Shown here one piece after another: positions 47,252-63,789 of a stretch of 64,000 nt of DNA; position 1 is the first letter of the stretch; every line of letters starts with the position of its first letter. A program made the position numbers and the translations under genes. The stretch covers positions 16,384 to 80,383 of the forward strand of contig WLJH01000016.1 of the NCBI GenBank assembly GCA_009701885.1, written 5' to 3'. This DNA is from Actinomycetota bacterium (lineage in GTDB: Bacteria; Actinomycetota; Actinomycetes; Propionibacteriales; Nocardioidaceae). The notes beneath the pieces were generated by a model. It saw only the letters and a program-made list of their open reading frames with translations. It was not told the DNA's origin and made no database searches.

Positions 47252-47476
47252 TCAGCGCGTCGCGATGAGCACCAGCGAACCCACGACGAGGAAGGCACCC
47301 GTGACCGTCATCGCCCGAGCACCCCGGGACATCGTGGCGCGCCGACGCTCGAGCACCTCCTCGCCCCCGAGGCTGCCCACCAGCAGGTCGAGGTGACGCC
47401 CGCTCCAGATCCCTCCTGCGAGGAGGAGCAGACCCAGCACGGGCAGGGCGATGAGGGTCGCAAGGTCCTCGCTCAC
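47252..47476 (-). CDS. small two-TM membrane protein
   Basis: GTG overlaps the upstream TGA. Two hydrophobic segments. Confidence 0.65.
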   Translation of the reverse strand: MSEDLATLIALPVLGLLLLAGGIWSGRHLDLLVGSLGGEEVLERRRATMSRGARAMTVTGAFLVVGSLVLIATR

Positions 47477-48588
47477 GGTTCCTGGCCCGCCGGGCCGCTC
47501 GGGGTGGCCGGCGGGGGCGTGCTGCCGGGGAGGTCGAGCCCGGGGAGGGAGGACGGGTCCGCTGGCCGGTAGTCCTCGGCGTAGGTGAGGTCGGCGCCCG
47601 CGACGACGTCGGTGAGGAAGGCCTGCCACGTGGTCAGGCCCCGGGCTGCGAGCAGGGTGGTGCGCAGCTCCTCACGGACCTCCTCGAAGCCCTGCGTACG
47701 AGCTGGTCGCGCGGCCGTGACCAGCCCGAGGTAGACGTAGCTGGCACCCGGCGAGCGGACCGGGCCGAACACCTGGCCGGGTCGGCTCCGGAAGGCCGCC
47801 GCGGCGAAGGGGCCCTGGAGCTGCCCGGCCGCGACGAACCCGAGGTCCCCACCCTGGGGCGCGGTGCTGGTGTCGAGGGAGCGGCGCCGCGCGACCGAGG
47901 CGAAGTTGCTCGGAGTGAGGCTCGAGCGCAGCGTGAGCGCCTCGGCACGGTTCGCTACGGCGATCGCGGAGATCCGACGGGTCCGGGGTAGGTCGAACTC
48001 CTCCGGGTTCGCCTCGTACGCGGACCTCACCTCCTCGGCCTCGATGGTGAGGTCGGCCGTGACCTCGCTGTAGAGGCGCTCGATCCGCAGCTGGCGCTCG
48101 AGCTCCTCGAGCACGTCGTCCTCGGAGACACCCTCGTCTGCGAGCGCATCCACGAACTCCGTCCGCCCGCCGGGGTAAGCAGCGTCGAGGAACTCCTGGG
48201 CGGCGCGGTCCAGGTCCGCCTGGCTGACCGTGACCTGGGCCTCGTCAGCGGCGGCATCCACCACCAGGGAGACCGCGAAGGACTGTGCAGCCAGCCGCCG
48301 GCCGTCTTCCTCGTCGAGGTCGGGCGCCTCGATCCCGTACATCGCCTGCTGCTCGACCAGGTGCCGCCGCAGGTCCGACTCGACGTACACCCGTCCGTCC
48401 AGCTCGAAGACGGCGTCCTCGGGCAACCCGCCCCACGGGCGCACGACGACCGTCACGGCGACCACGCCGACCACGGCCATGACGAGCGGTACGACGAGGC
48501 GCCACCGGCGCCACCGGCGCGTGACGGTGGCCTCCGTAGCCCCGTTGGCCGCGGCCCCGTCAGCTGCGGCCCCCTCGGTGTGGGTCAT
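47473..48588 (-). CDS. membrane-anchored SurA/PrsA-like parvulin foldase
   Basis: N-terminal TM, SurA-N-like region, VARRRSLD...QGGDLG...PFAAAAF...GPVRS. Confidence 0.8.
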   Translation of the reverse strand: MTHTEGAAADGAAANGATEATVTRRWRRWRLVVPLVMAVVGVVAVTVVVRPWGGLPEDAVFELDGRVYVESDLRRHLVEQQAMYGIEAPDLDEEDGRRLAAQSFAVSLVVDAAADEAQVTVSQADLDRAAQEFLDAAYPGGRTEFVDALADEGVSEDDVLEELERQLRIERLYSEVTADLTIEAEEVRSAYEANPEEFDLPRTRRISAIAVANRAEALTLRSSLTPSNFASVARRRSLDTSTAPQGGDLGFVAAGQLQGPFAAAAFRSRPGQVFGPVRSPGASYVYLGLVTAARPARTQGFEEVREELRTTLLAARGLTTWQAFLTDVVAGADLTYAEDYRPADPSSLPGLDLPGSTPPPATPSGPAGQEP

Positions 48589-50891
48589 GCCGGGACCTCC
48601 TGCGATGACCGGCGGGCGTCCTCTGCCGGCTCGGCGCCGTCGTCGTCCGCCCGTCGCGGCAGCGCGAGTGCCACGACCGCGGCCGACAGCCCGGCCCAGA
48701 CCACGGACATGGCCAGGACGATCGCAAAGTTCCGCATGACGTCGAGGTCGGAACCCAGCAGGACCAGGTAGCCGGCCGTCGAGGTGGACCCGGCGACGAC
48801 CACGCTGCGCCAGGGGAAGGCGCGGTGACGCAACATCACGGTGAACTCACAGCCCACAGCAGCCGTCAGCGACCCGAGCGCACAGGTGAGGGGGGTCAGG
48901 GACGCCCCCGAGACACGCAGGGCGAGCAGACCCAGCCCCGTGGCGATGGAGGCGGCCAGCAGGGCTCGGAGGGCGTCACCGCGGTGCCGCCACCCGAGCA
49001 CGAGCAGCAGGGCGACCGAGGGCGCCAGCACACCGCCGAGGTTCGCGACGAGTCGCGACTCGTCGAGCAGCTCGAACTCGCGCGCGGCCACCGCCGGGAC
49101 GCCCGCGATCACGACCTCGCTGCCCTCGGGGGGCGGCGGCAGCGTCCTGCGGATCGCCTCCAGCAGGGCGCCCTGCTCGGCGATGTCGCTGGGGACGACC
49201 CCGAAGGACATCGCGGTCGTGGAGGCATCGGCGCTGGAGACGGCCGAGAGGAGGTACGGCGGCATCAGGGCGTACGCCGAGCCGATCTGCTGCGCCGTGG
49301 GATCTGGGCCGAGGAAGCCGAGGAGTTGTGCTGGGGAGAGGATCGTGCGCAGCTGGTCGCCGAGCTCGGCCACGACGGCCTCACGAGCCTCGACCGACCA
49401 GGCCAACGTCTCCGGTGGTGCGGCAGAACCCGTCAGGAGCACGTCGACCTGTCCCGAGACGCCGAGGATCCGCTGGCTCTCGCTCGCCTCCGCCTCGACC
49501 GGCAGCCCCTCGGCCAGGCCGGCGAGGTCCGCCTTCAGCGGGATGCCGGGCAGCAGCACCCAGCCTGCCAGCGCGGAGACGGCCATGGCCCCGAGCACGA
49601 CCTGCGCCGTACGCCGCCCCCGCCGGCCGAGCGGCGCACCGCCGCTGTCGGCCGCGTCGTCGCGGACCGGCACCGTGGCCCCGAGCGCGAACCGCAGCAG
49701 CTGGCCGATCACCGCCGCTGCGATCACGCCGACGGCGATGAGCAGACCGAGCTGCTGCAGGAACGGGACGGGCGACAGCGCGGTCATGGCGAAGCCCGTG
49801 GCCGTGGCGATCGCGTTCGCGATCACCCGGCGCGAGGGACCGAACAGACCGAGGTAGATGGGCACGTCGCACCCGATGCCGACGATGGCCGGCAGGACCG
49901 CTACGAGCACGAGCGAGGCAGGCTGGTCCAACCAGCCGAGCAGCGCCAGGTCCAGCAGCACCGCGCCCCCGGCCGCGGCCAGGGGGATGAGGTTCGCGAA
50001 CCAGCGCTCCCGGCGGCGGAGCCGGCGGGCCCCGATGGTGAGCAGGGTGCCGACCGCCAGCACGGAGGCCAGGGTCAGGTATGGGACCTCGTACCTGGAC
50101 TGCTCCACCAGCCCGGCCAGCACCACCGGGGATCCGCTGACGATGGGCTCCTCGGCAGCGAGGTCGGCCTGTCCGACCGTGTCGCGGATGCCGTTGACCA
50201 GGGTCGCGACCTGACCCTGGGTGAGCCCACCCTCGGGGCGGATGACCAGGGCGATGGTGTCCTCGTCCGGCAGGACGAAGCGCAGGGTCGGGCGAGGCTC
50301 GTCGTCATCGAAGGCCACCGCGTCGACGAAGGCCTGGTTCGACAGCGTCGGCAGGCCCGCGGGAAGGGCCTGGGTCAGCAGGACGCCGTACCTCAGGTCG
50401 TAGGCACGCAGCGCCTCGCGCTTCGCCCGGGCGATCTCCTCGGGACCGCCACCCTCGGCCCGCGCCCGACGAGCGGCTTCCGCCACCACGTCCTGCCGCT
50501 TGAAGCTGATCCCGCTCAGGAAGTTCTGCGCACTGGCTGCGAGCTGGTTGAGGACCGTGCCGGGCCCGTACACCACCCTGACCCCGGGCAAAGCCGAGAG
50601 CTGGCCCTCGAGCGCGATCAGCTGCGGGAGCTTGTCGGTCGTCAGCCAGGGCTGCCCGGCCTCGGAACGGATCACCACCGTGATCGGGTCCGAGCCGAAC
50701 TGCTGCTCATCGAGCGTGTAGGCCTCCCGCGCCGGGTCCTCGGCGTCGAGGAAGGTCGCCACCGAGGTGTCGAACTCCAGTCGGCTCAGTCCGCCCACGG
50801 TGAGCACCGCCAGCACGAGCAGCGCCAGCGCCGCCACGACGCGTGAGCGTCGAGACGGCGCTGGCGCACCCGAGTGGTCAACAGCAGTCAT
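48585..50891 (-). CDS. RND/MMPL-family membrane protein
   Basis: 768 aa, two repeats of TM, large loop and 5 TMs. VYGPG, VSGSPVV, GIGCD, VIAGVPAV. Confidence 0.8.
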   Translation of the reverse strand: MTAVDHSGAPAPSRRSRVVAALALLVLAVLTVGGLSRLEFDTSVATFLDAEDPAREAYTLDEQQFGSDPITVVIRSEAGQPWLTTDKLPQLIALEGQLSALPGVRVVYGPGTVLNQLAASAQNFLSGISFKRQDVVAEAARRARAEGGGPEEIARAKREALRAYDLRYGVLLTQALPAGLPTLSNQAFVDAVAFDDDEPRPTLRFVLPDEDTIALVIRPEGGLTQGQVATLVNGIRDTVGQADLAAEEPIVSGSPVVLAGLVEQSRYEVPYLTLASVLAVGTLLTIGARRLRRRERWFANLIPLAAAGGAVLLDLALLGWLDQPASLVLVAVLPAIVGIGCDVPIYLGLFGPSRRVIANAIATATGFAMTALSPVPFLQQLGLLIAVGVIAAAVIGQLLRFALGATVPVRDDAADSGGAPLGRRGRRTAQVVLGAMAVSALAGWVLLPGIPLKADLAGLAEGLPVEAEASESQRILGVSGQVDVLLTGSAAPPETLAWSVEAREAVVAELGDQLRTILSPAQLLGFLGPDPTAQQIGSAYALMPPYLLSAVSSADASTTAMSFGVVPSDIAEQGALLEAIRRTLPPPPEGSEVVIAGVPAVAAREFELLDESRLVANLGGVLAPSVALLLVLGWRHRGDALRALLAASIATGLGLLALRVSGASLTPLTCALGSLTAAVGCEFTVMLRHRAFPWRSVVVAGSTSTAGYLVLLGSDLDVMRNFAIVLAMSVVWAGLSAAVVALALPRRADDDGAEPAEDARRSSQEVPA

Positions 50892-52186
50892 CGAGTTTCG
50901 CGCGTGACTCTCTTGTAGTCCCCGGTGAAGTTGATCTGGGGGTCACCAGCAGTGCCAGGCGCAGGGTACGGGTTCTGACCCACGCCGCCCACGGCCGTGG
51001 TGGGCAACGGGTTGCCCACGAGACTGGTGGAGTTGAGCACGGCGAAGACTCGCACGAACCGGCTCGTGGCGTCCTGCAGACCGAAGACCGAGGAGTCGTT
51101 GGCGAAGAAGGCCGCCAGGTCCATCCCGTACGGGCTCATGTAGTCGATCATCGGGTTCAGGTCCGCCAGGGCCTTCTGCAGGTTGGGGACCAGCGGGTCC
51201 AGGGCACCGCTCAGGGCAGGCACCCGGTCGAGGGTCGCCGGCGCCGTGCGGAGCACGGTGTTGAGCGTCGGGAACGTGGCGCGCAGCTCTCGCGTGGTGC
51301 TGGGCAGCTTGGTCAGCACCTCCGTGACGCCGGGTGCGGCCACGTCCAGCGCCCCCGCCAGCGGGGCAAGGTCGCCGGCCAGCGTCTGGAGCGCAGGGGC
51401 AGCACCACTGGCACTGGAGAGCACCTCGGGCAGCTGGCGCATGGTCGCCTCGACCTGCTGGCGCTGCCGCGCGGTCGCACCCATGTTCTGCTGCGCGACC
51501 TCGACGAGGTGGGCGATCTGGCCCTGACGCTCGTCGAACGCGGCGAGCACGCGCGCACTGGTGCGGGAGAGCCGGACCAGGTCGTCCTGCTGGTCGGCGA
51601 GTGCCGCCAGGCTGTCGTGCCCCTGGGTGCCGAGGGTCCCCAGGCCCGTCATCACCGCGTCGATGTCCTCCGAGCGGCCCTCCGTCGCAGCGCCGCCCTC
51701 CCGGATCAGGCTCCCGAGGGAGGCCCGAGCCTTCGGAGAGAGCTCGTTGAGCACCTCGTCGAGGTGCACGGAGGAGGAGTTGGCGGACAGCGGCAGGGCC
51801 GTCCCGCCGTCGATCTCGTCGCCCGTGCCGTCGGTGATGTCGACGTAGGTCTCCTCGACGAGCGTCTTGCTCCGCAGCGCGAAGGTCGCGCCCTCGTGGA
51901 GCGGGGCCACGCTCTCGTCCAGGCCGACGACGGCCGTGGCCGCCTCGCCCCGGCCGCTGATCTCGAGCACCGAGCCGACCTTCACCCCGGCGACCATGAC
52001 GTCGGAGTTCTCGACCAGGTTCTGCAGGTCCTGGGACTGCAGGGTGACCTTGTAGTCATGACCCACGCCCGGCAGCCGACCGCCCGAGTTCACCCACAGG
52101 TAGGTGAACACGACGGCCATGGCTGCCGTGAAGCCGATGAGGGTCGCGAGGCGCCAGGCGGGCAGCCTGCTCACGCGGATCTTCAC
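50888..52186 (-). CDS. mce: MCE/MlaD-family protein (6th)
   Basis: N-terminal TM, NSDVMVAGVKVGSV, KTLVEETYVDI, helical C-terminal region. Confidence 0.9.
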   Translation of the reverse strand: MKIRVSRLPAWRLATLIGFTAAMAVVFTYLWVNSGGRLPGVGHDYKVTLQSQDLQNLVENSDVMVAGVKVGSVLEISGRGEAATAVVGLDESVAPLHEGATFALRSKTLVEETYVDITDGTGDEIDGGTALPLSANSSSVHLDEVLNELSPKARASLGSLIREGGAATEGRSEDIDAVMTGLGTLGTQGHDSLAALADQQDDLVRLSRTSARVLAAFDERQGQIAHLVEVAQQNMGATARQRQQVEATMRQLPEVLSSASGAAPALQTLAGDLAPLAGALDVAAPGVTEVLTKLPSTTRELRATFPTLNTVLRTAPATLDRVPALSGALDPLVPNLQKALADLNPMIDYMSPYGMDLAAFFANDSSVFGLQDATSRFVRVFAVLNSTSLVGNPLPTTAVGGVGQNPYPAPGTAGDPQINFTGDYKRVTRETR

Positions 52187-53442
52187 TGGTTGCCACCCTT
52201 CGCACTCGTCGGGATCAGCGAACCCGGGTTCTGGACGAGCTCGGCGCGGAAGATGCCGCCGTTACCGTCCCTGAGGGACCCCACGGACGTGGTGTTGGAG
52301 AGGAAGTCCTGGAGGTAGCCCAGCTCTCCGTCCTTGCGGTAGTCCAGGCCGGAGATCAACCGCTGCGTGATCGAGTCCAACCGTCCGGTGAACGGCGTCA
52401 CGGCCACCAGGCTCTGGTTGCCAGCAGCGATGAGGGGCCTGAGGTCGGCGACCAGCGGCCGCGCCTCGCGGACGAGCGGACCCGCCTCCGTGGTGAGGTC
52501 AGCCAGCTGGTCCAGCGTGCCCTGCAGCTGCTCCAGGGCACTCGGCAGGGACTCGCTGGCGCCACGGATGTTGCGCAGCGTCGGCTCGAGCTGCGCCGAG
52601 AGCGTGGAGATCTTCGTCGTGGAGTCCCGCAGGCTGTCGGTGAAGCCCGGGAGCGCCGCCAGCGTCTCGTCGAACTCGGTGTTCTTCGCCTGCAGGGCGC
52701 CGAGGGTCTCCGCGGCGTCCCGGGCCAGCTTCGTCAGGCGCTCGTCGTCGTTGCCCACGGCCTGCGCCACGTTGCCCAGGTCGGTGACCAGACGCGCCAG
52801 GGCGGCGCGCCGCGTCTCCAGCGCCTCTGCGACCTTCCCCAGACCGCCGAGGGTCTCGTCGGTGGCCGTGAGGCCCGGAGCGAGTGCGACCGGGGCGGAG
52901 GCGAGAGCGGCGTCGGACTGGGCGAGCAGGGTGGTGACCGCTGCACGGGTCCGGCCGTCGAGGTGCTGGAAAACCTCGTCCTGCTGGATGGTGGAGTCGG
53001 TCCGCGTGGAGGGCAGCGAGCCGCCGTCCTCGAGCTCACCCGCGGCCTCGGTGCCGGGGTCGAGCTCGACGTACATCTCGTTCAGCGGGCTCTTGGGTCG
53101 CAGCACCAGGCGGGCGTCGCGGTAGACCTCGTACTCGGGCTCGAGGACCATCGTCAGCTCGGCCTCGCCGTTCTCGTTCACCCCGGCCTCGGTGATCTCA
53201 CCCACAGGGACGCCGGCGATGCGGACCTCCTGGCCGTTGCCCGGGCTGATGGCCGGGGCCTCCTTGAAGCTCGCCTGGAAGGTGTAGTCGTCGGTCCACG
53301 GCCACCGTGCCCGCTGCTCGACGAGGAGGTAGCCCGTGACCGCGAGGCCGATCGCGACGGTCAGCACGATCGTCAGGACGTCCTTGCCGAAGCCGGGGGT
53401 ACGGCGGATGTGGCCCCAGGTGCGGGCGATCCGGCCGCTCAT
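52183..53442 (-). CDS. mce: MCE/MlaD-family protein (5th)
   Basis: EVRIAGVPVGEI, PKSPLNEMYVELDPG. Confidence 0.9.
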   Translation of the reverse strand: MSGRIARTWGHIRRTPGFGKDVLTIVLTVAIGLAVTGYLLVEQRARWPWTDDYTFQASFKEAPAISPGNGQEVRIAGVPVGEITEAGVNENGEAELTMVLEPEYEVYRDARLVLRPKSPLNEMYVELDPGTEAAGELEDGGSLPSTRTDSTIQQDEVFQHLDGRTRAAVTTLLAQSDAALASAPVALAPGLTATDETLGGLGKVAEALETRRAALARLVTDLGNVAQAVGNDDERLTKLARDAAETLGALQAKNTEFDETLAALPGFTDSLRDSTTKISTLSAQLEPTLRNIRGASESLPSALEQLQGTLDQLADLTTEAGPLVREARPLVADLRPLIAAGNQSLVAVTPFTGRLDSITQRLISGLDYRKDGELGYLQDFLSNTTSVGSLRDGNGGIFRAELVQNPGSLIPTSAKGGNQ

Positions 53443-54731
53443 CGCGAGAACCCCATGCTGGAGGCGACCAGGTCACGCCACGACTGCATGAGCTTGGCTG
53501 GCGTGACGAACTCGGTGAGGGTGTCCGGGCCAGGGCCGGGCTGGAAGTTGATCATCGCTCCGTTGGAATCCGTCGTCATCGAGTTCAGGTTCAAGATCGT
53601 GAACATGTAGGCGATCTGCTCGTAGCCCAGCGGCGAGTCCTTGCCGGCCACAGGCGAGTTCAACGTCCGCAGGATCGTGCCGTTCACCCGGTCGATGACC
53701 GGCGAACGCACGTCCTCGACGAGCGTCTGGAGACGTCGCGCGGCCGGCACGGCCTCGCGGGCCGTGGGGTCCAGGTCCTGCATCAGGGGCCGCAGGTCCG
53801 CGACCACAGGACGCAGGGTCCGGACGTCCTCGGGGCTGCTGCGCAGCAGGCTGGACAGCGACCGGACGCTGGGAAGGGCGGCGGTACTGGTGGTCCGCAC
53901 CTCGTCGAGGACCCCTGCGAGGTCCTCGAGGCCCGAGCGGGTACGCCGCAGGGTCTCGGGCCCACGGGCGACGGTGGTGCTGATCGCGGTGGACTGGCGG
54001 GCGAGCGTGCGCGAGAACGTGTCCAGGCCCTCGAGGCTGTCGGCCAGGGCGCCCTGCTCGGCGGTGAGCTGCCGCGACACGGACTGGAGCCCCGTGATGG
54101 CCCTGGTGAGGTCCTCGTCCGGCTTCGTCCCGGCGACCGCGCTCAGGAGCCGGGCGGAGCTCTGCAGCGACGGCGGCACCGACTGGACGAACTCCCGGAG
54201 GGCCGGCGTCGCCGGGCCCGAGAACGTCTCGTCGATCAGCTCCACGTCCTTGCTGATGGCGGCGCGAGCGGGCTTGTTCAGCATCCCGATGGTGGCGTCG
54301 AGCTCGACCGGCACCGAGGTGCGCTCGACCGGGATGGCGCCCTCCAGCGCCTGGCCCCGATCACCCCCCGGGGTCAGCTCGATGAAGTAGTTGCCACCCA
54401 GGATGGTCGTCGGACGGATCGCCGCCGACGGGTCGCTGCCGAGGATCTCGGTGATCCCGTCGTCGACCTTGAGCGTCATCCGGGCGCCATCACCGTGCTG
54501 CTCGATCTCCGTGAGGACACCAACGGGCACGCCGGCGACCTTGACCCGGCTGACGTTCGGCCGGACCTTGTAGTCACGCGCGAAGTCGACGACCACGGTG
54601 TCGCCGCCCCGCAGGGCGACCATGATCGGCGTCTTGAAGAACAGCAGGGTGCCGGCGAGCAGGCACAGCACCGCGGCGACGGCACCGATCCTGGTTGTCG
54701 ACATGCCTCGGAACTGACGGCGGATCGCCAC
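53439..54731 (-). CDS. mce: MCE/MlaD-family protein (4th)
   Basis: RVKVAGVPVGVL, PTTILGGNYFIELTPG. Confidence 0.9.
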   Translation of the reverse strand: MAIRRQFRGMSTTRIGAVAAVLCLLAGTLLFFKTPIMVALRGGDTVVVDFARDYKVRPNVSRVKVAGVPVGVLTEIEQHGDGARMTLKVDDGITEILGSDPSAAIRPTTILGGNYFIELTPGGDRGQALEGAIPVERTSVPVELDATIGMLNKPARAAISKDVELIDETFSGPATPALREFVQSVPPSLQSSARLLSAVAGTKPDEDLTRAITGLQSVSRQLTAEQGALADSLEGLDTFSRTLARQSTAISTTVARGPETLRRTRSGLEDLAGVLDEVRTTSTAALPSVRSLSSLLRSSPEDVRTLRPVVADLRPLMQDLDPTAREAVPAARRLQTLVEDVRSPVIDRVNGTILRTLNSPVAGKDSPLGYEQIAYMFTILNLNSMTTDSNGAMINFQPGPGPDTLTEFVTPAKLMQSWRDLVASSMGFSR

Positions 54732-54732: not shown

Positions 54733-55989
54733 TCAGTTACCTCCCTCGTTGTAGGCCTCGAGAGGACCCGGGTAGGGGTTCCTCGGCGTCAGCGGCGCCG
54801 GTCCAGGGACCGAGCCGAGCACCGCGGACGGCCCCGTGACCAGGTCGAGCCTCAGGTAGTGGTTGCCGTTGGGGAGCTTCTGCGACAGCGCGTCGGCGAA
54901 CCAGTCGAAGAACAGACCGGCGTTGGTGCCGTAGGCGCCCAGGACGGACAGTGCAGGCTCGGCGCGCATGAGCGCGGCGGACACCTGCGGTGCGAGCGGG
55001 CGCAGGTCCGCGGAGGTCCCGGTCAGGCTGCGCACGGCCGGGTCGGCAGCGCGCGCCGCCCGGGGGACGTTGCCCAGGGCTCGCGCACCCGAGGTCAGGG
55101 TCGCCCGGAGGTCCGGGGTCTGCCGACCGAGGTCCGCCAGCGCGGGACGCAGGGTGCGCACGGCCGACGTGGTGTCGTCGAGCGGAGCGACCAGGGAGGC
55201 CAAAGCGGTCTCCGCCTCCCCCAGGGTCGTCGGAGCCTGGCGGAGGGTCGCACGCAGCGGCTCGGCGTCGTCGACGGCGAACGCCGAGAGGACCTCGTCG
55301 CTGGTCTCGAGCAGCGCTGCCAGCTGGACGCTGCGAGTCTCCACGTGCTCGGAGAGCGTGGCCGCAGCACGCAGGGTGCTGTCGAGGTCGGCTGCGTCGG
55401 AGGAGAGCGCCTGGGAGATCGTCCCCAGGTCGTCCAGCGACGACGCGGCCGTGGCCAGGAAGTCCGAGAGGTCCCCTCCGTGGCCGGCGACACCGCGACC
55501 GGCGCTGCGCGCGGCGAGTGCAGCCTGCTCCCGCGTGCGCTTGTCGAAGGTGTCCAGCAGGTCGTCGAGCTGTACGGCGCTCCGGGACTGTGCCGTCGGG
55601 AGGACGTCGTCACCCAGGGCGCCCGCCTCGGCGGTGCCCGGGTCGAGGTCGACGTAGGCCTGGCCCAGCGCGGACCGAGCCCGGATGCGGGCCACGGCGT
55701 CGCTGTTGATCTCGAGGTCTTCGGGCAGCTGCAGCTCGACGAGTGCCTCGGACTCACCGACCTCGATGGCCGTCACCTGGCCCTCACGAACGCTGCGCAG
55801 GCGCACGTCGTCCCCGACGCGGAGCGAGCCGACATCGGCGAACGCCACCCGGACGTAGCTGTAGTCCTTGAGCGGCACGCCCTTCGTGACGGTGAACGCC
55901 ACTCCCAGGGACACCACGAAGACGACGAACAACGTCAGACCGGCCAGCGTGTTGGTCTGGCGCCATGGGCTGCGTGCCGAGCTGCTCAC
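54733..55989 (-). CDS. mce: MCE/MlaD-family protein (3rd)
   Basis: LRVGDDVRLRSVREGQV, RSALGQAYVDLDPG. Confidence 0.9.
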   Translation of the reverse strand: MSSSARSPWRQTNTLAGLTLFVVFVVSLGVAFTVTKGVPLKDYSYVRVAFADVGSLRVGDDVRLRSVREGQVTAIEVGESEALVELQLPEDLEINSDAVARIRARSALGQAYVDLDPGTAEAGALGDDVLPTAQSRSAVQLDDLLDTFDKRTREQAALAARSAGRGVAGHGGDLSDFLATAASSLDDLGTISQALSSDAADLDSTLRAAATLSEHVETRSVQLAALLETSDEVLSAFAVDDAEPLRATLRQAPTTLGEAETALASLVAPLDDTTSAVRTLRPALADLGRQTPDLRATLTSGARALGNVPRAARAADPAVRSLTGTSADLRPLAPQVSAALMRAEPALSVLGAYGTNAGLFFDWFADALSQKLPNGNHYLRLDLVTGPSAVLGSVPGPAPLTPRNPYPGPLEAYNEGGN

Positions 55990-57485
55990 GAGGCACCTCC
56001 TGTCAGCATGGTGAGCAGTGCCTGCTCCTGGGCGATGGTCAAGCCGGTGGCGCTGTTCGGGTCGGCAGCCGGGGTCTGCTCGCGCTTGGAGGCGCCCTCG
56101 TTCTTCTGCGTCTTCTCCGCGCCCTTCAGCAGGCCGCCCAGACCACCCAGGTCGCCCAGCCCGCCGAGCAACGGGAGCTCGGGCAGCGAGTTCGCGATGT
56201 CGGGAAGGGCGCCGAGGATGTCGGGGAGGTCGGGGATCAACGACGGACCACCCGGCCCGTTGCCCGAGGCCGGGGCCGAGGGAAGGAGCGGCGGCACGAG
56301 CGAGGTGACCGAGTCACTGTTCACCACGACCTGGACCCGGAAGTAGTGGGACAGCCCGTCCTTGCCGTTCGTGGTCAGCGACCAGTAGGTGATGAAGTCC
56401 AGCAGTCCCCCGAGGTGGTCGGTCAGGTCCATCAGGAACCGCGAGCCGTTCCGGGCGTCGGCCACCATCGCGTCGCTGCTGCTGTTGAGCTGCGCCACCA
56501 ACGGGGTGGCCTCCCGCACCAGCTGTCGTGCCTGGGCCAGCACCGGCTTCAGCGTGCTGATCGCGGGCTCCGCGGCACGCGAGAAGGCGCTCGCCTCGCC
56601 GGCGATCTGGTTCAGCTGGTCGGTGAAGGGGCGAGCAGACGACAGCGCCGGGGTGGCCTGGTCCGCGAGCCCGGACAGCGAGGTCAGGGTGCGCTGGGCC
56701 GTCTTGAGGGTCGACGGCAACCGGTCCAGGGTCGCCTCCAGGGCGACCCGCTCCTCAGCAGTCGCATCGAGGAGCTGGGCAGCGGAGTCGACGAGCGCGT
56801 CGGTGGTGCCTCCGCCGTTGACCCCGAGCGAGGCGATCACGGGAGCGAACGCGTCGATCAGGCGCTGGAGGGTCGCCGTCTGCCCGTCGAGGACGGTCAC
56901 CAGCTCGTCCGCCTCGCGCATGGACGGAGCCAGCTCGGTCAGCGCCTCGGCAGCGTTCTCGCCGTTCCCGGCGACACCCTCACCGAGCGTGGTCAACAGC
57001 AGGGACAGGGCTCGGCCCGTCGGCTGGTCCACCGCGTCCAGGACCTCGTCGAGGTCCACCGCACGTGAGGTCTGCTCGGTGGGCAGCGTGTAGCCGTTCT
57101 CGGCCACGGGAGCGTCGGGAGTCCCCGGGTCGAGGTCGGCGTACCGCTCACCGAGGAGGCTGACGGGGCGGATCTTGAGCGTGGCGTCCGTGTGGATCGG
57201 CGTCTCGGTCGACATCAGCTCGAGGGTCATCCGAGCCGTGTCGTTGTCGACGACCACCAGGTCGCTGACGACGCCCACCTTGACGCCGAACATCCGTACG
57301 TCGTTGCCCTCGATCAGCGCGCCGGCGTCATCGGTCTCCGCGTACAGGGTGAGCGGTTGTCCCACCCGGACCAGGTCCGAGGCCGACGACGTGGCGATGG
57401 TCAGGAACAGGGAGGCGATGACCACCCCGACGACTCCGAGCGCCGCACGGGGGCGGGCTGCGATCGTGCTTCGCAGGGTGCTCAT
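55986..57485 (-). CDS. mce: MCE/MlaD-family protein (2nd) with Pro/Leu/Gly-rich tail
   Basis: GNDVRMFGVKVGVV, PVSLLGERYADLDPG. Confidence 0.9.
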   Translation of the reverse strand: MSTLRSTIAARPRAALGVVGVVIASLFLTIATSSASDLVRVGQPLTLYAETDDAGALIEGNDVRMFGVKVGVVSDLVVVDNDTARMTLELMSTETPIHTDATLKIRPVSLLGERYADLDPGTPDAPVAENGYTLPTEQTSRAVDLDEVLDAVDQPTGRALSLLLTTLGEGVAGNGENAAEALTELAPSMREADELVTVLDGQTATLQRLIDAFAPVIASLGVNGGGTTDALVDSAAQLLDATAEERVALEATLDRLPSTLKTAQRTLTSLSGLADQATPALSSARPFTDQLNQIAGEASAFSRAAEPAISTLKPVLAQARQLVREATPLVAQLNSSSDAMVADARNGSRFLMDLTDHLGGLLDFITYWSLTTNGKDGLSHYFRVQVVVNSDSVTSLVPPLLPSAPASGNGPGGPSLIPDLPDILGALPDIANSLPELPLLGGLGDLGGLGGLLKGAEKTQKNEGASKREQTPAADPNSATGLTIAQEQALLTMLTGGAS

Positions 57486-58738
57486 CGGATCCTCGATCCC
57501 GTAGCGTCGGTCCAGGCCTGGCCCACGTTGCTGCCAGGCGCCGGCGTGAGGTTCTGGGTCACACCGGGAGGGGGGCTGTTGAACACGCCGATCGGCGTGG
57601 TCGTGCCCTCCTGCACCTTGATCCGGGCGACGTGGTATTGCCCGAGGTACTGCGAACCCGCGGAGGCCCAGTTGGTGAAGTAGCCGGTGATCTCCGGCGT
57701 GTAGGGCCGCAGGAAGGACAGGGCAGGAAGCAGACGACCCGTGGCCCGGTCGACCTCCGGCAGGAGCCGGGTCGAGGACATCAGGAGCTCGGGCGTGACA
57801 CCCAGAAGCTCGGCCACCTCGTCCAGCGCCGAGCGGGTGCTCGACAGGGTCGGGTTGAGGTCGCTCAGCAACGGCGACACCTCGTCGGTGAAGGCAGGCA
57901 GCGCCTCGACGGAGGTCGTCAGCTCATCGAGCAGCGGGCTGGCGGCCTCGACCGTTCCGGGCACCTTGTCCAAGGTCGCACGGGCCACCTCGAGCGTGGA
58001 CGGCAGCTCCTGAAGGGCTGCCGCAAGCGCCTCGTCCTGCGCCGCGAGGTCGGTCTGCTGGGCGTCGAGGTCACGGATCGTGGACCTGATCGACGCGCTG
58101 TTCTGGTCCAGGACGTCCATGAGTGCCGCCGTGCGGGTCACGACGTCGCGGATCGCGGGTCCGTCGGCGCCGATGCCACCCAGCACCTGGGCGAGTGCCT
58201 CGACGGCGGGACCGAGCTGCTCCAGCGTCGCGTTGACGTCGTCGCCACGGTTCGCCACGGCACTGTCGAGGTTGATGATGGTCGAGGCGAGTCGGTTCCG
58301 GGTCTCCTCGTCGAGCGCGGCCAGGACCTGGTCGACCTCGACCCGGTCGTCACCGCGGACCATGGCGTTGTCCGGCAGCGGGGCGGCGTCGCTGTCACCC
58401 GGGTTGATCTGGATGACGCGCTCACCGAGCACCGCCTTCCACTCGATCTCGGCGGTCGATCCCTCCGGCATCTCGTCGTACGGCGGCTCGAGGGTCACGG
58501 TCACCACGGCCTGGCCGTCCTTGGCCTCCAGGTCCGTCACCTTGCCCGCGTCGAAGCCGTCGACCTGGACGACCAGGCCCTCGACGACCACCGGGGCCGA
58601 GGGGAAGACCAGCTGGAGCTGGTAGCCGTCGCCGCGGACGAGCCGCATTCCCACGACGGTCAGGAGGACCGCTGCCACGAGGACCGCGGCCAGGCGAAGT
58701 CCGCGCCCGCCGTGGGCGCGCAGGTCACTGATGGCCAT
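57482..58738 (-). CDS. mce: MCE/MlaD-family protein (1st)
   Basis: GLVVQVDGFDAGKV, KAVLGERVIQINPG. Confidence 0.88.
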   Translation of the reverse strand: MAISDLRAHGGRGLRLAAVLVAAVLLTVVGMRLVRGDGYQLQLVFPSAPVVVEGLVVQVDGFDAGKVTDLEAKDGQAVVTVTLEPPYDEMPEGSTAEIEWKAVLGERVIQINPGDSDAAPLPDNAMVRGDDRVEVDQVLAALDEETRNRLASTIINLDSAVANRGDDVNATLEQLGPAVEALAQVLGGIGADGPAIRDVVTRTAALMDVLDQNSASIRSTIRDLDAQQTDLAAQDEALAAALQELPSTLEVARATLDKVPGTVEAASPLLDELTTSVEALPAFTDEVSPLLSDLNPTLSSTRSALDEVAELLGVTPELLMSSTRLLPEVDRATGRLLPALSFLRPYTPEITGYFTNWASAGSQYLGQYHVARIKVQEGTTTPIGVFNSPPPGVTQNLTPAPGSNVGQAWTDATGSRIR

Positions 58739-59538
58739 CAGTCCATCCCCAGGGGGCCGGCGGAGTCACCGCTGAGGAACTGGCGCACGAAGGCGTCCTC
58801 GGAGTTGAACGCTTCCTCGGTGGGGCCGTAGTGGATCCGCTTGCCTTGCCACACGAGCGCCACGTAGTCGCTGACCTTGCGCGCCGTCGGGATGTTGTGC
58901 GTGACTAGGACGTAGGTCCCGCCGTGCTCGGCGTGCACGTCGAGGATCAGGTCGTTCAGCAGCGACGTCCGCACGGGGTCCAGACCCGAGTCGGGCTCGT
59001 CGAAGAGCACGACGTCCGGGTTGAGGACCAGCGCACGGGCAAAGCCGGCGCGCTTGCGCATGCCGCCGGAGACCTCGTTCGGCAGCTTGCCGAGGGCCGA
59101 CTCCAGGCCGACCTCGCTGAGGCGCTGGAGGACGATCGAGCGGATCTCCTCCTCGTCCTTGTCCGTGTGCTTGCGCAGGGGGAAGGCGACGTTGTCGTAG
59201 ATGTTCATCGACCCGAAGAGAGCGCCGTCCTGGAACAGCACGCCGTAGCGCTGGCGCATGGCGTACTTCTCCGCGCGGGTCATTTTCGAGACCGGAGACC
59301 CGAAGAAGACGATCTCCCCGGCGTCGGGCTCGAGCAGGGCGACCATGTGCTTGAGCAGGACCGACTTGCCGGTACCGGAGGGACCCAGCACCGTCGTGAT
59401 CGAGTCACGCTTGAAGTCCAGGTCGAGACCCTGGAGGACCTTGAAGTCCCCGAAGGCCTTCTCGACTCCGCGCACCTCGACAGCGTTCTGCTCGGAGGTC
59501 GCCTTGCTGTCCGACGCGTAGGGCAGGGTGGTAGTCAC
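58738..59538 (-). CDS. mkl: Mkl/MceG/MlaF-type ABC ATPase
   Basis: GPSGTGKS, LFQDGALF, VSGGMRKR, LFDEPDSGLDP, VTHN, EDAFVRQFL. GTG 59538. Confidence 0.92.
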   Translation of the reverse strand: MTTTLPYASDSKATSEQNAVEVRGVEKAFGDFKVLQGLDLDFKRDSITTVLGPSGTGKSVLLKHMVALLEPDAGEIVFFGSPVSKMTRAEKYAMRQRYGVLFQDGALFGSMNIYDNVAFPLRKHTDKDEEEIRSIVLQRLSEVGLESALGKLPNEVSGGMRKRAGFARALVLNPDVVLFDEPDSGLDPVRTSLLNDLILDVHAEHGGTYVLVTHNIPTARKVSDYVALVWQGKRIHYGPTEEAFNSEDAFVRQFLSGDSAGPLGMD

Positions 59539-59549: not shown

Positions 59550-60434
59550 TCAGTTCGCGATGGGCGCATTGGGCGAGAGGCCCCAGAACAGCTGCGTACC
59601 CAGGAGTCCGATGATGTGGATGAGCACCATGTTGAGGATCATCGAGCGCGCGGTGGCCCGCCCGACGCCGACGGGACCTCCGCTGGCGTTGAACCCGAAG
59701 AAGCACCCGACGAAGACGATCACCGTGCCCATGGCCATGATCTTGATGAGGGAGAAGGCTAGGTCTCCTGGCGATTGGTAGAGCCAGAAGATGAAGGAGT
59801 AACCACCTGGTGACGTAGCCGCGAGCTGGTCGACGACGACCAGCTTCTCCGCCAGGAACATCAGCGCCAGCCCGACGATGTAAAGGAAAGGCATGGCCAG
59901 CCAGGCGCCGACGACGCGCGAGGCGACGAGGTAGGTCATGGAGTCGATACCCATGACCTCGGTGGCGTCGATCTCCTCCGAGATGCGCATCGAGCCCAGC
60001 TCGGCGACCAGGCCGCAGCCGACCTTCGCGGCGAGGATGTAGCCCCACATGTAGGGACCCATCTCGCGCAGACCGCACCAGGCGGTGAAGATGCCGGAGT
60101 AGAGCGGGGCGCCGATCTGCTTCAGGGTGTAGGCACCCTCGATGCCGCACTGGGCGCCGATGACGAACATCATCAGGAAGATGATGAGTCCGCTGGACAG
60201 GACCAGGATCGAGGCCTGTCGGAAGACTTCGGCGGGGTACTGCCGCAGACCCGGCATCGCCCGGAAGGTCGCCATGGAGAATTTGGAGAGCTCTCCGAAC
60301 GTCGTGAGGGCACCGCTCATCTGTCGGGAGAACGATGCGACCGACACGTCGACGGTCTCGTAGGTCGTCTTGCGGTCACGCCGGTCCTGGCGCGATCGGT
60401 CTGTCACGGACTCGTTGTCGTCGAGCATGGTCAT
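59550..60434 (-). CDS. yrbE: YrbE/MlaE-family permease B
   Basis: REMGP, KVGCGLVAELGSMRISEEIDATEVMG, GPVGVGRAT. Confidence 0.92.
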   Translation of the reverse strand: MTMLDDNESVTDRSRQDRRDRKTTYETVDVSVASFSRQMSGALTTFGELSKFSMATFRAMPGLRQYPAEVFRQASILVLSSGLIIFLMMFVIGAQCGIEGAYTLKQIGAPLYSGIFTAWCGLREMGPYMWGYILAAKVGCGLVAELGSMRISEEIDATEVMGIDSMTYLVASRVVGAWLAMPFLYIVGLALMFLAEKLVVVDQLAATSPGGYSFIFWLYQSPGDLAFSLIKIMAMGTVIVFVGCFFGFNASGGPVGVGRATARSMILNMVLIHIIGLLGTQLFWGLSPNAPIAN

Positions 60435-60441
60435 GAGCAGG

Positions 60442-61359
60442 TCACCTCGCAACCTGGATGCCCGGGTAGAGCCCGAGCATGATGGTCGTGAAGACGTAGT
60501 TGAAGATCCAGATCACGGCGAAGCTGATGACGACGGCCTGGTTCACGGCCCGGCCGACTCCAATCGAGCCGCCCTTGGCGTTGAGGCCCTTGTAGCAGCA
60601 GATGATCCCGATGAAGAACCCGAAGATCGTGGTCTTGATGACGCTGCCGAGCAGGTCCTGCGTCGACGCGTTCGACCAGAAGTTCGCGAGGAACGCGCCC
60701 GGGGTCGCGTCGAGGATCGGCACGGCAGCGATGAAGCCGCCGATTACGCCGCAGACGAGGGCGAAGATGACCAGCAGCCCGGTCATGAAGGTCACCGCGA
60801 TGACGCGGGGGATGACGAGGACCCGGATCGGGTCGATGCCCAGCACCTCGAGCGCATCGATCTCCTCGCGGATGCGGCGGGCGCCGAGGTCGGCGGTGAT
60901 GGCGGTGCCGACCACGCCGGCGACGATCATCGCGTCGATCCAGGGGGCGAACTCACGGACGCTGGCCATGATGAAGAACGAGCCCAGGCGCTCGGGAATG
61001 CCGAACAGGGAGTAGATGTTCCCGCCCTGCAGGCCCGGAGCCCCGAGGCCGAAGGCGATGCAGGAGACGGTCAGCGGGATGAGGCAGAGCTTGAGGATCG
61101 CGTGCATCTGGTCGCGGACGTCGCCCCAGTAGCCCCGGGGCTGCATCACGGCGGACACCACCACGACCCGGGCCAGCGACATCATCTCGCCGGTCTCCGT
61201 CAGGGCGGAGAGCAGCATCCCGGACGACTTGCGTCGCCGGGGCGGCTTCACCGCGGGGGGGCCACTCAGGGCTGCGGGACCCACCGCGACAGCGCCGCCG
61301 GCGCCGACTGGTGGTGGTGCGACGTGGGTGTCGGGAGCTTCAGCCACGGTTGACTCCAT
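60442..61359 (-). CDS. yrbE: YrbE/MlaE-family permease A
   Basis: REFAP, ITADLGARRIREEIDALEVLGIDP, GGSIGVGRAV. Confidence 0.93.
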   Translation of the reverse strand: MESTVAEAPDTHVAPPPVGAGGAVAVGPAALSGPPAVKPPRRRKSSGMLLSALTETGEMMSLARVVVVSAVMQPRGYWGDVRDQMHAILKLCLIPLTVSCIAFGLGAPGLQGGNIYSLFGIPERLGSFFIMASVREFAPWIDAMIVAGVVGTAITADLGARRIREEIDALEVLGIDPIRVLVIPRVIAVTFMTGLLVIFALVCGVIGGFIAAVPILDATPGAFLANFWSNASTQDLLGSVIKTTIFGFFIGIICCYKGLNAKGGSIGVGRAVNQAVVISFAVIWIFNYVFTTIMLGLYPGIQVAR

Positions 61360-61652: not shown

Positions 61653-62768
61653 ATGACGGAGAAGTCGATCGTGGGTGAGCAGCAGCTCGGGGAAGCGGCG
61701 TCGGCTGCCGATGAGGCAGCGGGCGACGCTCGCCGCCCGCGGCTGGCACGTCTGGCGGGCTCTGGCCGTCGCCGTACGGTCGTCCTCGGGCTCGCCGCAG
61801 CCCTGGCATTCGCCGGCGGAGCGTGGCTGGTGACGGAGCGGGGCGAGGGCGAGAGTCCGGCCACCGCTGAGGCGGCCTTCGTCATCGACGACACCGAGGT
61901 GTCGGCCGGTGACATCGAGGACCGCGTCGAGGTGCTGGAGGTGCTGTACGGCTTGGCGGTCCCCCAGGAGGACGCCGAGCTGGAGGACTTCCGTCGCGAG
62001 GCGGCGCGCACCTTCGCGGCCACCCTCCTGATCGGGCAGGAGGCAGCAGCCCGCGGCGTCGCCGTCGACGAGGCGGAGGTGAGCGAGGCGATCGACCGCT
62101 TCGTCGGCGAGCTGTTCGGCGGAGACCGCGCGCGCTTCGAGTCAGCACTGGAGGACGGTGGGATCAGCATCGATGCCGTCCGCGACGAGGTGAAGCTCCA
62201 GCTCGACGGACAGGCCCTCTTCGAGCTGGTCACCGGCGGGGTGGAGGTGTCGCCCGCCGAGGTGCGCGCGGCGTACGACGCCGAGCCTGTCGCGTGGGCC
62301 GTGCCGCCCCGCCGGCGCCTCGCTGCCATCGTCACCGCCGACCCCGCCACCGCGCGGCGAGCCCTCGACGAGGTGGAGGCGAGCGGTGACTTCGCAGCAG
62401 CCGCCAGGCGCTTCACGCTCGACGACGCGACCCGGGACCAGGGGGGCCTCCTGGGCACGTTGACCCGGGCACAGCTGGACCGTCCCTTCGCGACGGCCGC
62501 CTTCGACGCCCCGGTCGGCGGGTACTTCGGTCCCGTCCGCACCGACAGGGGTTGGTATGTCGGTCATGTCGTGCGCGCCTTCCCACCGTTGCGCTCGTTC
62601 GGCCAGGTGCGCGAGGCGGTGGAGCAGAGCTTGGTGGGCCAGCGCTCCCTCCTCGTGTGGGAGTCCTTCGTCGAGGAGCAGCTCGCTGCGGCGGACGTCC
62701 GCTACGAGCCGGCGTACGAGCCGCGTCCCGATGACGGGACCGGCACCCTGATTCCAGGGGGTCCGTGA
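61653..62768 (+). CDS. second membrane-anchored SurA/PrsA-like parvulin foldase
   Basis: N-terminal TM, AARRFTLD...QGGLLG...PFATAAF...GPVRT. Clear paralog of 47473..48588. Confidence 0.8.
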   Translation: MTEKSIVGEQQLGEAASAADEAAGDARRPRLARLAGSGRRRTVVLGLAAALAFAGGAWLVTERGEGESPATAEAAFVIDDTEVSAGDIEDRVEVLEVLYGLAVPQEDAELEDFRREAARTFAATLLIGQEAAARGVAVDEAEVSEAIDRFVGELFGGDRARFESALEDGGISIDAVRDEVKLQLDGQALFELVTGGVEVSPAEVRAAYDAEPVAWAVPPRRRLAAIVTADPATARRALDEVEASGDFAAAARRFTLDDATRDQGGLLGTLTRAQLDRPFATAAFDAPVGGYFGPVRTDRGWYVGHVVRAFPPLRSFGQVREAVEQSLVGQRSLLVWESFVEEQLAAADVRYEPAYEPRPDDGTGTLIPGGP

Positions 62769-63403
62769 TGAAGCTGGTCCAGGTGGAGGACCCGGCCGTC
62801 GGCTCCTTCGACCTCGAGGACGGTGAGGTCGGCGTCCTCCTGGGTCGGTCCGGGGCAGGGAAGACGGTCCTGATCAAGAAGTTGCTGGGCTTGGACCGGC
62901 GCCTGATCGCGCGCCGCGGGTCCCCGCTCTCCCACTCGTGCGCCTACGTCCCGCAGTCCGACGGGGTGCTGCTCGACCTCACCGTGCTCGGGAACGTCAC
63001 GTGCCCGGATCCCCACGTGGCCCCAGTGCCCCAGGAGCGAGCCCTGGACTGGCTCGACCTGGTGGGGCTGCGTGCCCGGGCCAGCAGCGCGGCTTCCGAC
63101 CTGTCCCTCGCCGAACGTCGGCGGGTGGCCCTGGCCAGGGCGCTGTCACGGCAGAAGCCGTTGCTCATCCTGGACGGGGACTTCGACCACACCCTCGACG
63201 CGCTGCTGCGGGACCTGCTGGCGACGGTGCCGCACCTCTGCAGCGTGCTCACGACCTCCTGCGTCGCCGACATGCGGGTGTGGAAGGCGGACCGGGTCGG
63301 CGTGGTCGAGGGCAGCCGCTTGATCGCAGTCGGAACGATGGGTGACCTGGTGTCAAGCCTCGACCCCGACGTGCGTGCCGCCCTGAGCTGGACGATGGCA
63401 TGA
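62765..63403 (+). CDS. degenerate ABC ATPase (Mkl/MlaF-like)
   Basis: Walker A GRSGAGKT intact. Signature LSLAE, Walker B LLILDGD (no Glu), no switch His. Tail GTMGDLVSSLDPDVR. Confidence 0.75.
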   Translation: MMKLVQVEDPAVGSFDLEDGEVGVLLGRSGAGKTVLIKKLLGLDRRLIARRGSPLSHSCAYVPQSDGVLLDLTVLGNVTCPDPHVAPVPQERALDWLDLVGLRARASSAASDLSLAERRRVALARALSRQKPLLILDGDFDHTLDALLRDLLATVPHLCSVLTTSCVADMRVWKADRVGVVEGSRLIAVGTMGDLVSSLDPDVRAALSWTMA

Positions 63404-63789
63404 GCGCCCCGGCCCACGGGCACGCGCTGGACGAGACCGCACTGGTCAGGGGCGCGTCGAGCGGCTTCACAGTGCTGATCATCGGCGAGCTGATGTCGCC
63501 GGTCGTTGCTGGCATCCACCCGATGATCGGGCTGCTGTGGCTCTCGTTCGTCGGAGCCGCCGGATTCGTCGTGGCCGGGAGCCGGGTCGGCTTGGCCCGT
63601 CGTACCTGGCTGCAGGGCGCCCTCGCGGCACTGGCTGCGCTGACGCTCACCATCCCGCTGCGGATGCTCGTCGGGCTCGACACCGCGGGGCAGTGGTACG
63701 CCGTGATGGTCAGTGCAGTGTTCGGCCTGGTCGTGGGCGCCATCGCCGGCCGCAGCGCCGGTGCGATCCGCGACCGCACCGACGCCTGA
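63400..63789 (+). CDS. four-TM membrane protein
   Basis: ATGA overlap. Four hydrophobic segments. Confidence 0.7.
   Translation: MSAPAHGHALDETALVRGASSGFTVLIIGELMSPVVAGIHPMIGLLWLSFVGAAGFVVAGSRVGLARRTWLQGALAALAALTLTIPLRMLVGLDTAGQWYAVMVSAVFGLVVGAIAGRSAGAIRDRTDA

Follow-up and report, generated by a model that had tools for sequence, protein, structure and literature searches.

We analyzed a locus in a 64,000-nucleotide stretch of DNA (hereafter the window; positions 16,384 to 80,383 of contig WLJH01000016.1, assembly GCA_009701885.1) from an actinomycete of the Nocardioidaceae. It encodes a genuine and conserved variant of the Mce transporters that has apparently not been described before, in which the genes for two YrbE permeases, an Mkl ATPase and six Mce proteins are followed by those for a resistance-nodulation-division (RND) protein, a parvulin and a small membrane peptide. 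Our preferred reading, to which we assign a probability of roughly 0.55, is that this is a distinct Mce lineage, namely a needle and YrbEAB/Mkl importer with an RND partner, chaperones and a LucB-like protein, the cargo of which would be alkanes or their derivatives. The first-pass annotation of this DNA, made from the sequence alone, had stated that no characterized system of this composition was known. Indeed, full-text literature searches revealed no publication describing an mce operon with an RND protein, a parvulin or the tetraspan protein discussed below, and a phylogenomic survey from 2007, an Mce review from 2026, the paper reporting the Mce1 structure and a review of lipid trafficking make no mention of the architecture either.

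Gene content and conservation of the locus

The host genome has 3.96 Mb, the window lies on its contig C8, and the nearest relative retrieved is a Nocardioides metagenome-assembled genome (MAG). The GC content of the window is high, at 0.67-0.77, as befits actinomycete DNA. Twelve genes form a translationally coupled run on the minus strand, from 61359 down to 47252, in the order yrbEA-yrbEB-mkl-mceA-F-RND-parvulin-two-TM peptide (TM, transmembrane). According to the open reading frame (ORF) coordinates, neighboring genes overlap by 4 bp at mceA/B, B/C, D/E, E/F, mceF/RND, RND/parvulin and parvulin/small gene, mkl and mceA overlap by 1 bp, mceC and mceD are separated by 1 bp and yrbEB and mkl by 11 bp, and yrbEA and yrbEB overlap by 11 bp if a TTG start is used for yrbEB. 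Divergent from the operon, on the plus strand, a trio of genes for a parvulin, a degenerate ABC ATPase and a four-TM protein is joined by two 4-bp overlaps. Both the single run and the coupled trio had been claimed in the first-pass annotation and are confirmed here by ORF coordinates, Pfam and NCBIfam, with small corrections to the coordinates: the small protein is the two-TM product of 74 aa at 47252-47476 rather than a 125-aa ORF, and mkl spans 58738-59538. The codon-position GC pattern (GC1/2/3) selects the same reading frames as the ORF calls. The start of the upstream parvulin is most likely the ATG at 61653, giving 371 aa. Promoter and terminator scans gave no signal above chance. The genes of the operon and the trio are as follows.

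60442..61359, minus strand: yrbEA, MlaE-type permease, 305 aa (PF02405 8.6e-62; YrbE1A chain 8fed_I 5.2e-37)
59550..60452, minus strand: yrbEB, second MlaE-type permease, 300 aa (PF02405 2e-54)
58738..59538, minus strand: mkl/mceG-type ABC ATPase, 266 aa (NF008809 MlaF 8.9e-64; MceG chain 8fed_G 3e-78)
57482..58738, minus strand: mceA, 418 aa (PF02470 6.8e-10; TIGR00996 5.7e-27; clade A 98/98)
55986..57485, minus strand: mceB, 499 aa (PF02470 3.7e-13; clade B 99/98)
54733..55989, minus strand: mceC, 418 aa (PF02470 2.2e-14; clade C 94/89)
53439..54731, minus strand: mceD, 430 aa (PF02470 9.3e-10; clade D 95/95)
52183..53442, minus strand: mceE, 419 aa, without lipobox and without Cys (PF02470 2.5e-11; clade E 100/99)
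50888..52186, minus strand: mceF, 432 aa (PF02470 7.9e-11; Mce4_CUP1 3.9e-8; clade F 99/95)
48585..50891, minus strand: RND/MMPL-fold 12-TM protein, 768 aa, P0001 (TIGR00921 3.7e-21; structure model; Foldseek)
47473..48588, minus strand: PrsA/SurA-like parvulin, membrane-anchored, 371 aa (Rotamase_2 3.7e-14; SurA_N_3; TM residues 31-49)
47252..47476, minus strand: two-TM peptide, 74 aa, GTG start (coding-type GC1/2/3; homologues in 8 other loci)
61653..62768, plus strand: second membrane-anchored parvulin, 371 aa (Rotamase_2 1.5e-12; SurA_N_3 6.7e-7)
62765..63403, plus strand: degenerate ABC ATPase, 212 aa, P0004 (ABC_tran 4.8e-17)
63400..63789, plus strand: LucB-like tetraspan membrane protein by structure model and Foldseek, fold level only, 129 aa, P0003

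The Mce gene set is complete: it encodes both halves of a heterodimeric permease (YrbEA/YrbEB), an Mkl ATPase within the operon and all six Mce proteins. Two distinct YrbE permeases (PF02405) are present, as in Mce1-4-type transporters, and the Mkl encoded between yrbEB and mceA falls in the Mkl clade of the ATPase tree (100/99). The six tandem MCE-domain proteins (PF02470, with Mce4_CUP1 or TIGR00996, the latter at about 6e-27 for the two proteins scanned) each carry one N-terminal TM helix and a helical extension; the mceA product, for instance, presents an N-terminal TM helix, an MCE domain and a helical region. Their best match to the Mce1 chains is weak (E 5.5e-8). Cys is absent from five of the six, and the single Cys of the sixth lies outside any lipobox. 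The earlier observation that none of the six has a clear lipobox is thus sustained, with the canonical MceE of the same genome presenting LSAC at this position. This canonical type is represented by a second mce operon adjoining rpoB (L011, G000 contig C43:1-11000), with the order yrbEA-yrbEB, six mce genes (the LSAC lipobox being in MceE), two unassigned small genes and a DnaJ-domain gene, and its Mkl is probably the fragment, with 54% identity, that lies at one end of contig C36.

A maximum-likelihood tree was built from the 36 Mce proteins of six RND-linked operons and the six of the host's canonical operon. In this tree the RND-linked subunits form six positional clades, A to F, with support of 94-100, and all six canonical subunits fall outside them, with no positional orthology to the canonical operon being found. 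The deep topology is provisional, as the canonical proteins form long branches and come from only a single operon of that type, but within the tree sample the RND-linked type is clearly monophyletic and old.

A search with the RND protein retrieved eight further loci, from a Nocardioides, three Pseudonocardia, three Actinomycetospora and one uncultured actinomycete, with RND identities of 37-64%. The order yrbEB-mkl-mceA-F-RND-parvulin is the same in all eight, within the limits set by contig ends and 10-kb flanks. The same core of yrbE-yrbE-mkl, six mce genes, RND and parvulin is present in genome G382, where the small peptide was not detected, and a parvulin follows each RND gene in genomes G465 (four RND copies) and G574 (one). 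All of these support the proposal that the Mce architecture is a distinct one, equipped with an RND/MMPL protein and a parvulin of its own, and in them RND and parvulin genes are conserved beside mce genes, contrary to the outcome that the first-pass annotation had named as speaking against it. G465, a 5.1-Mb genome of the same genus, contains 66 MlaD matches, corresponding to about 11 mce operons, with MlaD matches just upstream of each RND gene; G311 contains 91.

More distant RND relatives extend this picture. In G311 mkl precedes yrbEAB, and six mce genes and then RND come after these; a parvulin was not detected there. In Solirubrobacter and three other assemblies the RND relatives (25-29% identity) come directly after mce genes, are followed either by a thioredoxin-fold protein resembling AhpC/TSA or by a small protein without assignment, and often have a B3_4-domain protein nearby. 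In G311 and these four (25-33% identity), the mce genes preceding RND follow MlaE-ABC. In Conexibacter (L016, 7002-13491) and G236 (L014, C10 10554-16510), yrbE-yrbE-mkl is followed directly by RND and then by a thioredoxin-like gene, and the mce genes are elsewhere in the genome, with exactly six MlaD matches on another contig in G236 and 24 in Conexibacter. An Mce-less system was considered for these two loci and was rejected for G236 in view of the six matches. The invariant pairing is, therefore, that of RND with the YrbE/Mkl module. The gene after RND is a parvulin in the Actinomycetes loci where it was identified (G311 not being one of them) and a thioredoxin-like gene in several Thermoleophilia-type loci.

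The close RND subfamily is rare and patchy, being found in 3 of 400 sampled genomes of the phylum, 3 of 200 sampled genomes of the family and 2 of 13 of the genus, and one of the two RND-bearing genus genomes holds four copies. The locus had earlier been called island-borne, and part of the data agrees with this. Left of the operon lies the following feature:

41759..41801, minus strand: 43-bp 3' fragment of tRNA-Arg(ACG), candidate att remnant (blastn 43/43 to nt 32-74)

The whole tRNA-Arg(ACG) gene is on contig C7, and ARAGORN found no whole tRNA in the window. Given the orientation of the fragment, an integrated element would extend rightward, and right of 40 kb the GC content drops by about five points (from ~0.75 to ~0.70). 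On the other hand, no tyrosine integrase was found on contigs C7 or C8; the second repeat is on another contig, so that the assembly does not include the far boundary. The locus is a plausible candidate for a tRNA-integrated genomic island. A perfect palindrome of about 24 bp (TGTGAGCGTGGATCCACGCTCACA) is found directly beside the tRNA-Arg fragment (window 41800-41850).

The tRNA fragment, the GC drop and the patchy spread could also be taken to mean that the RND, parvulin and trio genes merely hitch-hike with the mce operon on a mobile island. This explanation is very improbable, as genera that are not related share the gene order, which is also seen in a chromosomal setting on single contigs of up to 5.6 Mb, and as the gene set is preserved in several diverged paralogous copies of a single genome. 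A chance neighborhood, being contradicted by these conservation data, was rejected.

The RND protein, the parvulins and the divergent trio

The 768-aa RND protein has no Pfam match of its own, and a sequence search of the PDB gave nothing useful. It matches the HAE3 family TIGR00921 (3.7e-21, 74.9 bits) below the cut-off of 351.9, and its homologues carry PF03176 (MMPL). An AlphaFold2 model built with 32 homologues (predicted local distance difference test, pLDDT, 85; predicted template modelling score, pTM, 0.79) presents a 12-TM fold with two extracytoplasmic porter domains, the first of which includes a long predicted helical hairpin at residues 110-178. Foldseek matched this model to MmpL4/5, HpnN, MmpL3 and Patched/NPC1, with E values of 1e-14 to 2e-17 and TM-scores of about 0.6. 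Asp342 in TM4 and Glu682 in TM10 (D342 and E682) do not vary among the 32 sequences, even at identities as low as 28%. Because RND transporters have their proton-relay residues at these positions, the protein is probably an active transporter driven by the proton motive force (PMF).

As the RND protein retains all features of an autonomous PMF transporter, and as adjacency to mce is not obligatory (in G236 and Conexibacter it is encoded after yrbE-yrbE-mkl, with the mce genes elsewhere), one could envisage two machines, with the Mce system importing and the RND protein, having no contact with it, acting as an independent efflux valve or exporter of a solubilizing lipid that guards the membrane from overload. 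We hold this to be improbable. The position of the RND gene right after mceF or mkl is invariant, with 4-bp overlaps on both sides, and the linkage is kept from Actinomycetes to Thermoleophilia at 25-64% identity, which is more typical of the subunits of one complex.

Both parvulins of the locus carry SurA_N-like and parvulin domains (Rotamase_2, Rotamase, SurA_N_3) and are anchored by a TM helix. The upstream parvulin is a paralogue of the downstream copy (36% identical), and the latter matches PrsA (6vj4) at 1.8e-8. The catalytic His pair is replaced by Ala and Tyr in both window copies and by Asn and Asn in Pseudonocardiaceae, and is kept only in the copy of locus L015. The description of the two as foldases therefore stands with respect to their domains but less so with respect to catalysis: the replacement of both His residues favors a holdase role over prolyl isomerase activity, and the proteins are better read as putative chaperones than as isomerases. 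The two-TM peptide, of 70-76 aa, overlaps or abuts the parvulin stop codon in all 8 other loci. In the Actinomycetospora loci an additional 181-aa lipoprotein (LTACG) is encoded after it.

The ATPase of the trio retains an intact Walker A motif (GRSGAGKT), but its signature reads LSLAE, its Walker B (LLILDG) lacks the catalytic Glu, its H-loop region reads LTTSC, with no His, and its C-terminus is truncated. The reported degeneracy of this protein is thus confirmed. Its description as Mkl-like is not demonstrable, as it forms a long unplaced branch in the tree, and its treatment as a demonstrable Mkl paralogue was consequently dropped. Without the Glu and the H-loop His, a heterodimer of this pseudo-ATPase with Mkl would have no fully canonical site. 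The protein is 57% identical to its copy in locus L001. In Pseudonocardiaceae a counterpart ATPase encoded near the tetraspan gene is sister to the Mkl clade (99/97), has the signature PAHAR, keeps the H-loop and Walker B (followed by Glu or Asp) and carries a C-terminal TM anchor. The shared synteny with the tetraspan gene suggests that the Nocardioides pseudo-ATPase is orthologous to this Mkl-sister ATPase. In the Pseudonocardiaceae loci (L002-L008), the genes for the degenerate ATPase and the tetraspan protein flank a further conserved gene (e.g., L002:15010-15483 and L005:15404-15907), the product of which is a membrane protein of 139-175 aa with four hydrophobic segments by eye and no Pfam family.

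The four-TM protein is conserved in all nine loci (the window and the eight retrieved via RND), and two further copies in G465 are both at the head of an RND-linked operon. All 11 copies found thus adjoin an RND-linked mce operon, whereas a search of the other 400 sampled genomes of the phylum gave no copy. Clustering at 50% identity leaves 183 representatives of the family, with which Pfam and PDB profile searches gave no sequence-level match. Its AlphaFold2 model (pLDDT 82) has four helices. Comparison with LucB had been set down before the structural search, in which the top Foldseek match was 8fed_K (probability 0.99, TM-score 0.53/0.50, E 0.07), all other matches having a probability of at most 0.57 and a TM-score of at most 0.47. 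In 8FED, chains A-F are Mce1A-F, G and H are MceG, I is YrbE1A and J is YrbE1B, so that chain K is, by elimination, LucB. We thus regard the four-TM protein as a putative LucB-like tetraspan accessory, the likeness being one of modeled fold only. The earlier statement that no accessory genes could be recognized is, in this respect, too strong, given that the closest PDB structural match of this protein is LucB. LucB itself binds the TM helix of Mce1C, and its cytoplasmic tail has been proposed to contact MceG or to recruit other proteins (PMC9882608).

Metabolic neighborhood, cargo and direction of transport

Downstream of the operon, the window encodes the following genes:

45392..47200, minus strand: class II polyhydroxyalkanoate (PHA) synthase PhaC (PhaC_N 2.6e-52; TIGR01839 4.6e-175)
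44535..45395, minus strand: PHA depolymerase-like hydrolase, PhaZ (TIGR02240 246.4 bits, cut-off 250.6)
42831..44402, minus strand: GMC oxidoreductase of the choline/alcohol dehydrogenase type, AlkJ-like (GMC_oxred_N, GMC_oxred_C; NF002550 1e-158)

The phaC gene lies 51 bp downstream of the peptide gene on the same strand, is the only copy in the genome and is also linked to the operon in L001. Beyond the trio (L012, which is G000:C8:79000-90503) are a ferredoxin (Fdx)-CYP153A-ferredoxin reductase (FdR) alkane hydroxylase operon (L012 1199-4237), convergent on the trio, a PucR-type regulator, two acyl-CoA synthetases (FadD) and an aldehyde dehydrogenase. The P450 on this side matches solved CYP153A alkane hydroxylase structures with an E value of about 1e-213. 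A second CYP153 paralogue, 66% identical, is found on contig C2 near 90.8-92.1 kb. Taken together, the neighbors form a complete route from alkane to alcohol, aldehyde, acid, acyl-CoA and medium-chain-length PHA. In the Nocardioides MAG, the operon is likewise surrounded by genes for CYP153A (80% identical), FdR, PhaZ and PhaC, but these are arranged differently, and such rearrangement of the same catabolic set argues for functional linkage. Around other copies of the operon, FadD and P450/FdR genes occur within 5-12 kb.

The complete alkane-to-PHA route favors import of alkanes or their derivatives here and of long-chain lipids more generally. In this genome, the cargo would most likely be medium- to long-chain n-alkanes or their alcohol or acid derivatives. 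The idea of hydrocarbon or long-chain lipid import, raised in the first-pass annotation, thus fits the neighboring Fdx-CYP153A-FdR, AlkJ-like GMC, FadD, aldehyde dehydrogenase and PhaC/PhaZ genes. Mce-mediated import of alkane-like plastic breakdown products has also been proposed from proteomics (PMC13327627). As for regulation, a PucR-family gene occurs near RND-linked mce operons in three genomes (L012:4497-5783, L013:18730-19899 and L021:15663-16868), PucR-type regulators recurring in G311 and G465. The PucR-family protein is a candidate regulator of the Mce-RND system.

In the mechanism that we propose, six TM-anchored, non-lipidated Mce proteins would form a heterohexameric needle that spans the wall of a non-mycolate actinomycete and passes hydrophobic substrates on to YrbEAB/Mkl, which would import them at the expense of ATP. 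The RND protein, at the membrane base, would act as a partner driven by the PMF, moving substrate between the outer leaflet or the needle base and the permease. The His-less parvulins may serve as holdases for the assembly of the Cys-free Mce subunits, and the LucB-like protein would bind the TM helix of an Mce protein, in the way that LucB docks on Mce1C, and may recruit the non-hydrolytic ATPase as a regulator. Imported alkanes, alcohols or acids would then feed the adjacent route of Fdx-CYP153A-FdR, AlkJ-like oxidase, aldehyde dehydrogenase, FadD and PhaC/PhaZ.

Several points weigh against this reading and should be considered. Characterized bacterial RND/MmpL proteins are exporters. A physical association of the RND protein with the Mce proteins is put forward from synteny only, the match of the tetraspan protein to LucB is at fold level only (E 0.07, 17% identity, no hidden Markov model match), and the canonical Mce proteins occupy long branches of the tree. 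Only the two Nocardioides loci have CYP153A next to them, those of Pseudonocardiaceae having only FadD or unrelated P450s within 10 kb, and no operator k-mer (11-mer) common to the upstream regions of mce, CYP153, phaC and GMC was found.

Transport in the opposite direction must also be weighed, with the RND protein extracting an envelope or surface lipid or a biosurfactant and the needle conducting it outward, so as to build or maintain a hydrophobic surface, with no nutrient import. The best structural matches of the RND protein are indeed the lipid exporters MmpL3, MmpL4/5 and HpnN, the proton-relay candidates D342 and E682 are conserved, the neighbors of the Thermoleophilia loci give no catabolic hint, and the direction of MlaFEDB-type systems is debated. 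Export is nevertheless unlikely, although to be taken seriously, since catabolic neighbors recur (CYP153A, FadD, P450/FdR), the locus is without lipid-biosynthesis genes, and the characterized heterohexameric actinobacterial Mce systems are importers (PMC13492129).

A bolder version of the importer with an RND partner, which we offer as possible though doubtful, is a two-motor transporter: an ATP-driven MlaFE-type module and a proton-driven RND protein would act as a single complex on one Mce tunnel, with the LucB-like protein recruiting the pseudo-ATPase and so tuning the machine. This machine would be ancient, separate from Mce1-4 and spread over Actinomycetes and Thermoleophilia, and would here serve alkane uptake.

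Relation to known transport systems

Mce transporters are the main route of fatty acid and sterol uptake in actinobacteria, including mycobacteria. A lineage in which genes for an RND protein, a chaperone and small membrane subunits always accompany those of the ABC core suggests that ABC and RND transporters cooperate, in a way so far unrecognized, to move lipids or hydrocarbons. As soil actinomycetes have no mycolate outer membrane, they offer a natural, non-pathogenic model for what an Mce needle does in such an envelope, and the LucB-like protein coupled to a pseudo-ATPase offers a testable handle on LucB. The locus is also a candidate dedicated alkane importer beside CYP153A; how alkanes get into Gram-positive degraders, a question relevant to bioremediation and bioconversion, is as yet little understood.

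The host genera lack the mycolate outer membrane, unlike mycobacteria. With Mce1 and Mce4, which import fatty acids and cholesterol, respectively (PMC13492129, PMC9882608), and which work with the accessory proteins Mam/Omam, LucA and LucB, the system shares a pair of permeases of the MlaE type, a set of six Mce proteins that differ from one another and begin with a TM helix, and an MlaF-type ATPase (cryo-EM structures 8FED-8FEF), and with Mce1 it shares, at fold level only, a LucB-like tetraspan protein. FadD genes lie near the locus, as does fadD5 at mce1 (PMC2867952). The Mce proteins are only remotely similar to the Mce1 chains, and MceE is not a lipoprotein, unlike that of mycobacterial Mce systems. 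Whereas the 2007 survey gives as a rule that mkl lies upstream and Mas genes downstream of mce operons, here mkl is inside the operon, between yrbEB and mceA, unlike in mycobacterial Mce1 and Mce4. After mceF come the RND, parvulin and two-TM peptide genes, and no Mas/Mam-like gene was recognized in the operon, no dedicated search for such genes having been made. That the RND protein and the chaperones take the place of these accessories, as the first-pass annotation suggested, is an inference.

The RND protein has in common with the MmpL/HpnN/HAE3 transporters (MmpL3, MmpL4/5, HpnN and BstA) the 12 TM helices, the two porter domains and the acidic residues of TM4 and TM10. It is, however, only 13-16% identical to solved members of this type and falls under the Pfam and NCBIfam cut-offs. 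Unlike in MmpL-type systems, no MmpS-like partner was recognized beside it, and it is always encoded with a YrbE/Mkl ABC module, an association that we did not find described for any characterized RND protein. The parvulins share their SurA_N-like and parvulin domains and a membrane anchor with PrsA of Firmicutes and with SurA, these two being their best PDB matches, but the anchor is a TM helix and not a lipid as in PrsA, the His pair is replaced and the genes are inside a transporter operon. The pseudo-ATPase resembles the degenerate nucleotide-binding domains (NBDs) of heterodimeric ABC transporters in having an intact Walker A motif and a degenerate signature. Unlike such NBDs, it has neither a catalytic Glu nor a His in the H-loop, and its gene is coupled to the LucB-like gene rather than to a permease. 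Finally, the Fdx-CYP153A-FdR genes beside the locus are those of CYP153A alkane hydroxylase clusters, and in no paper that we found is a CYP153 cluster tied, as it is arranged here, to a dedicated Mce-RND transporter.

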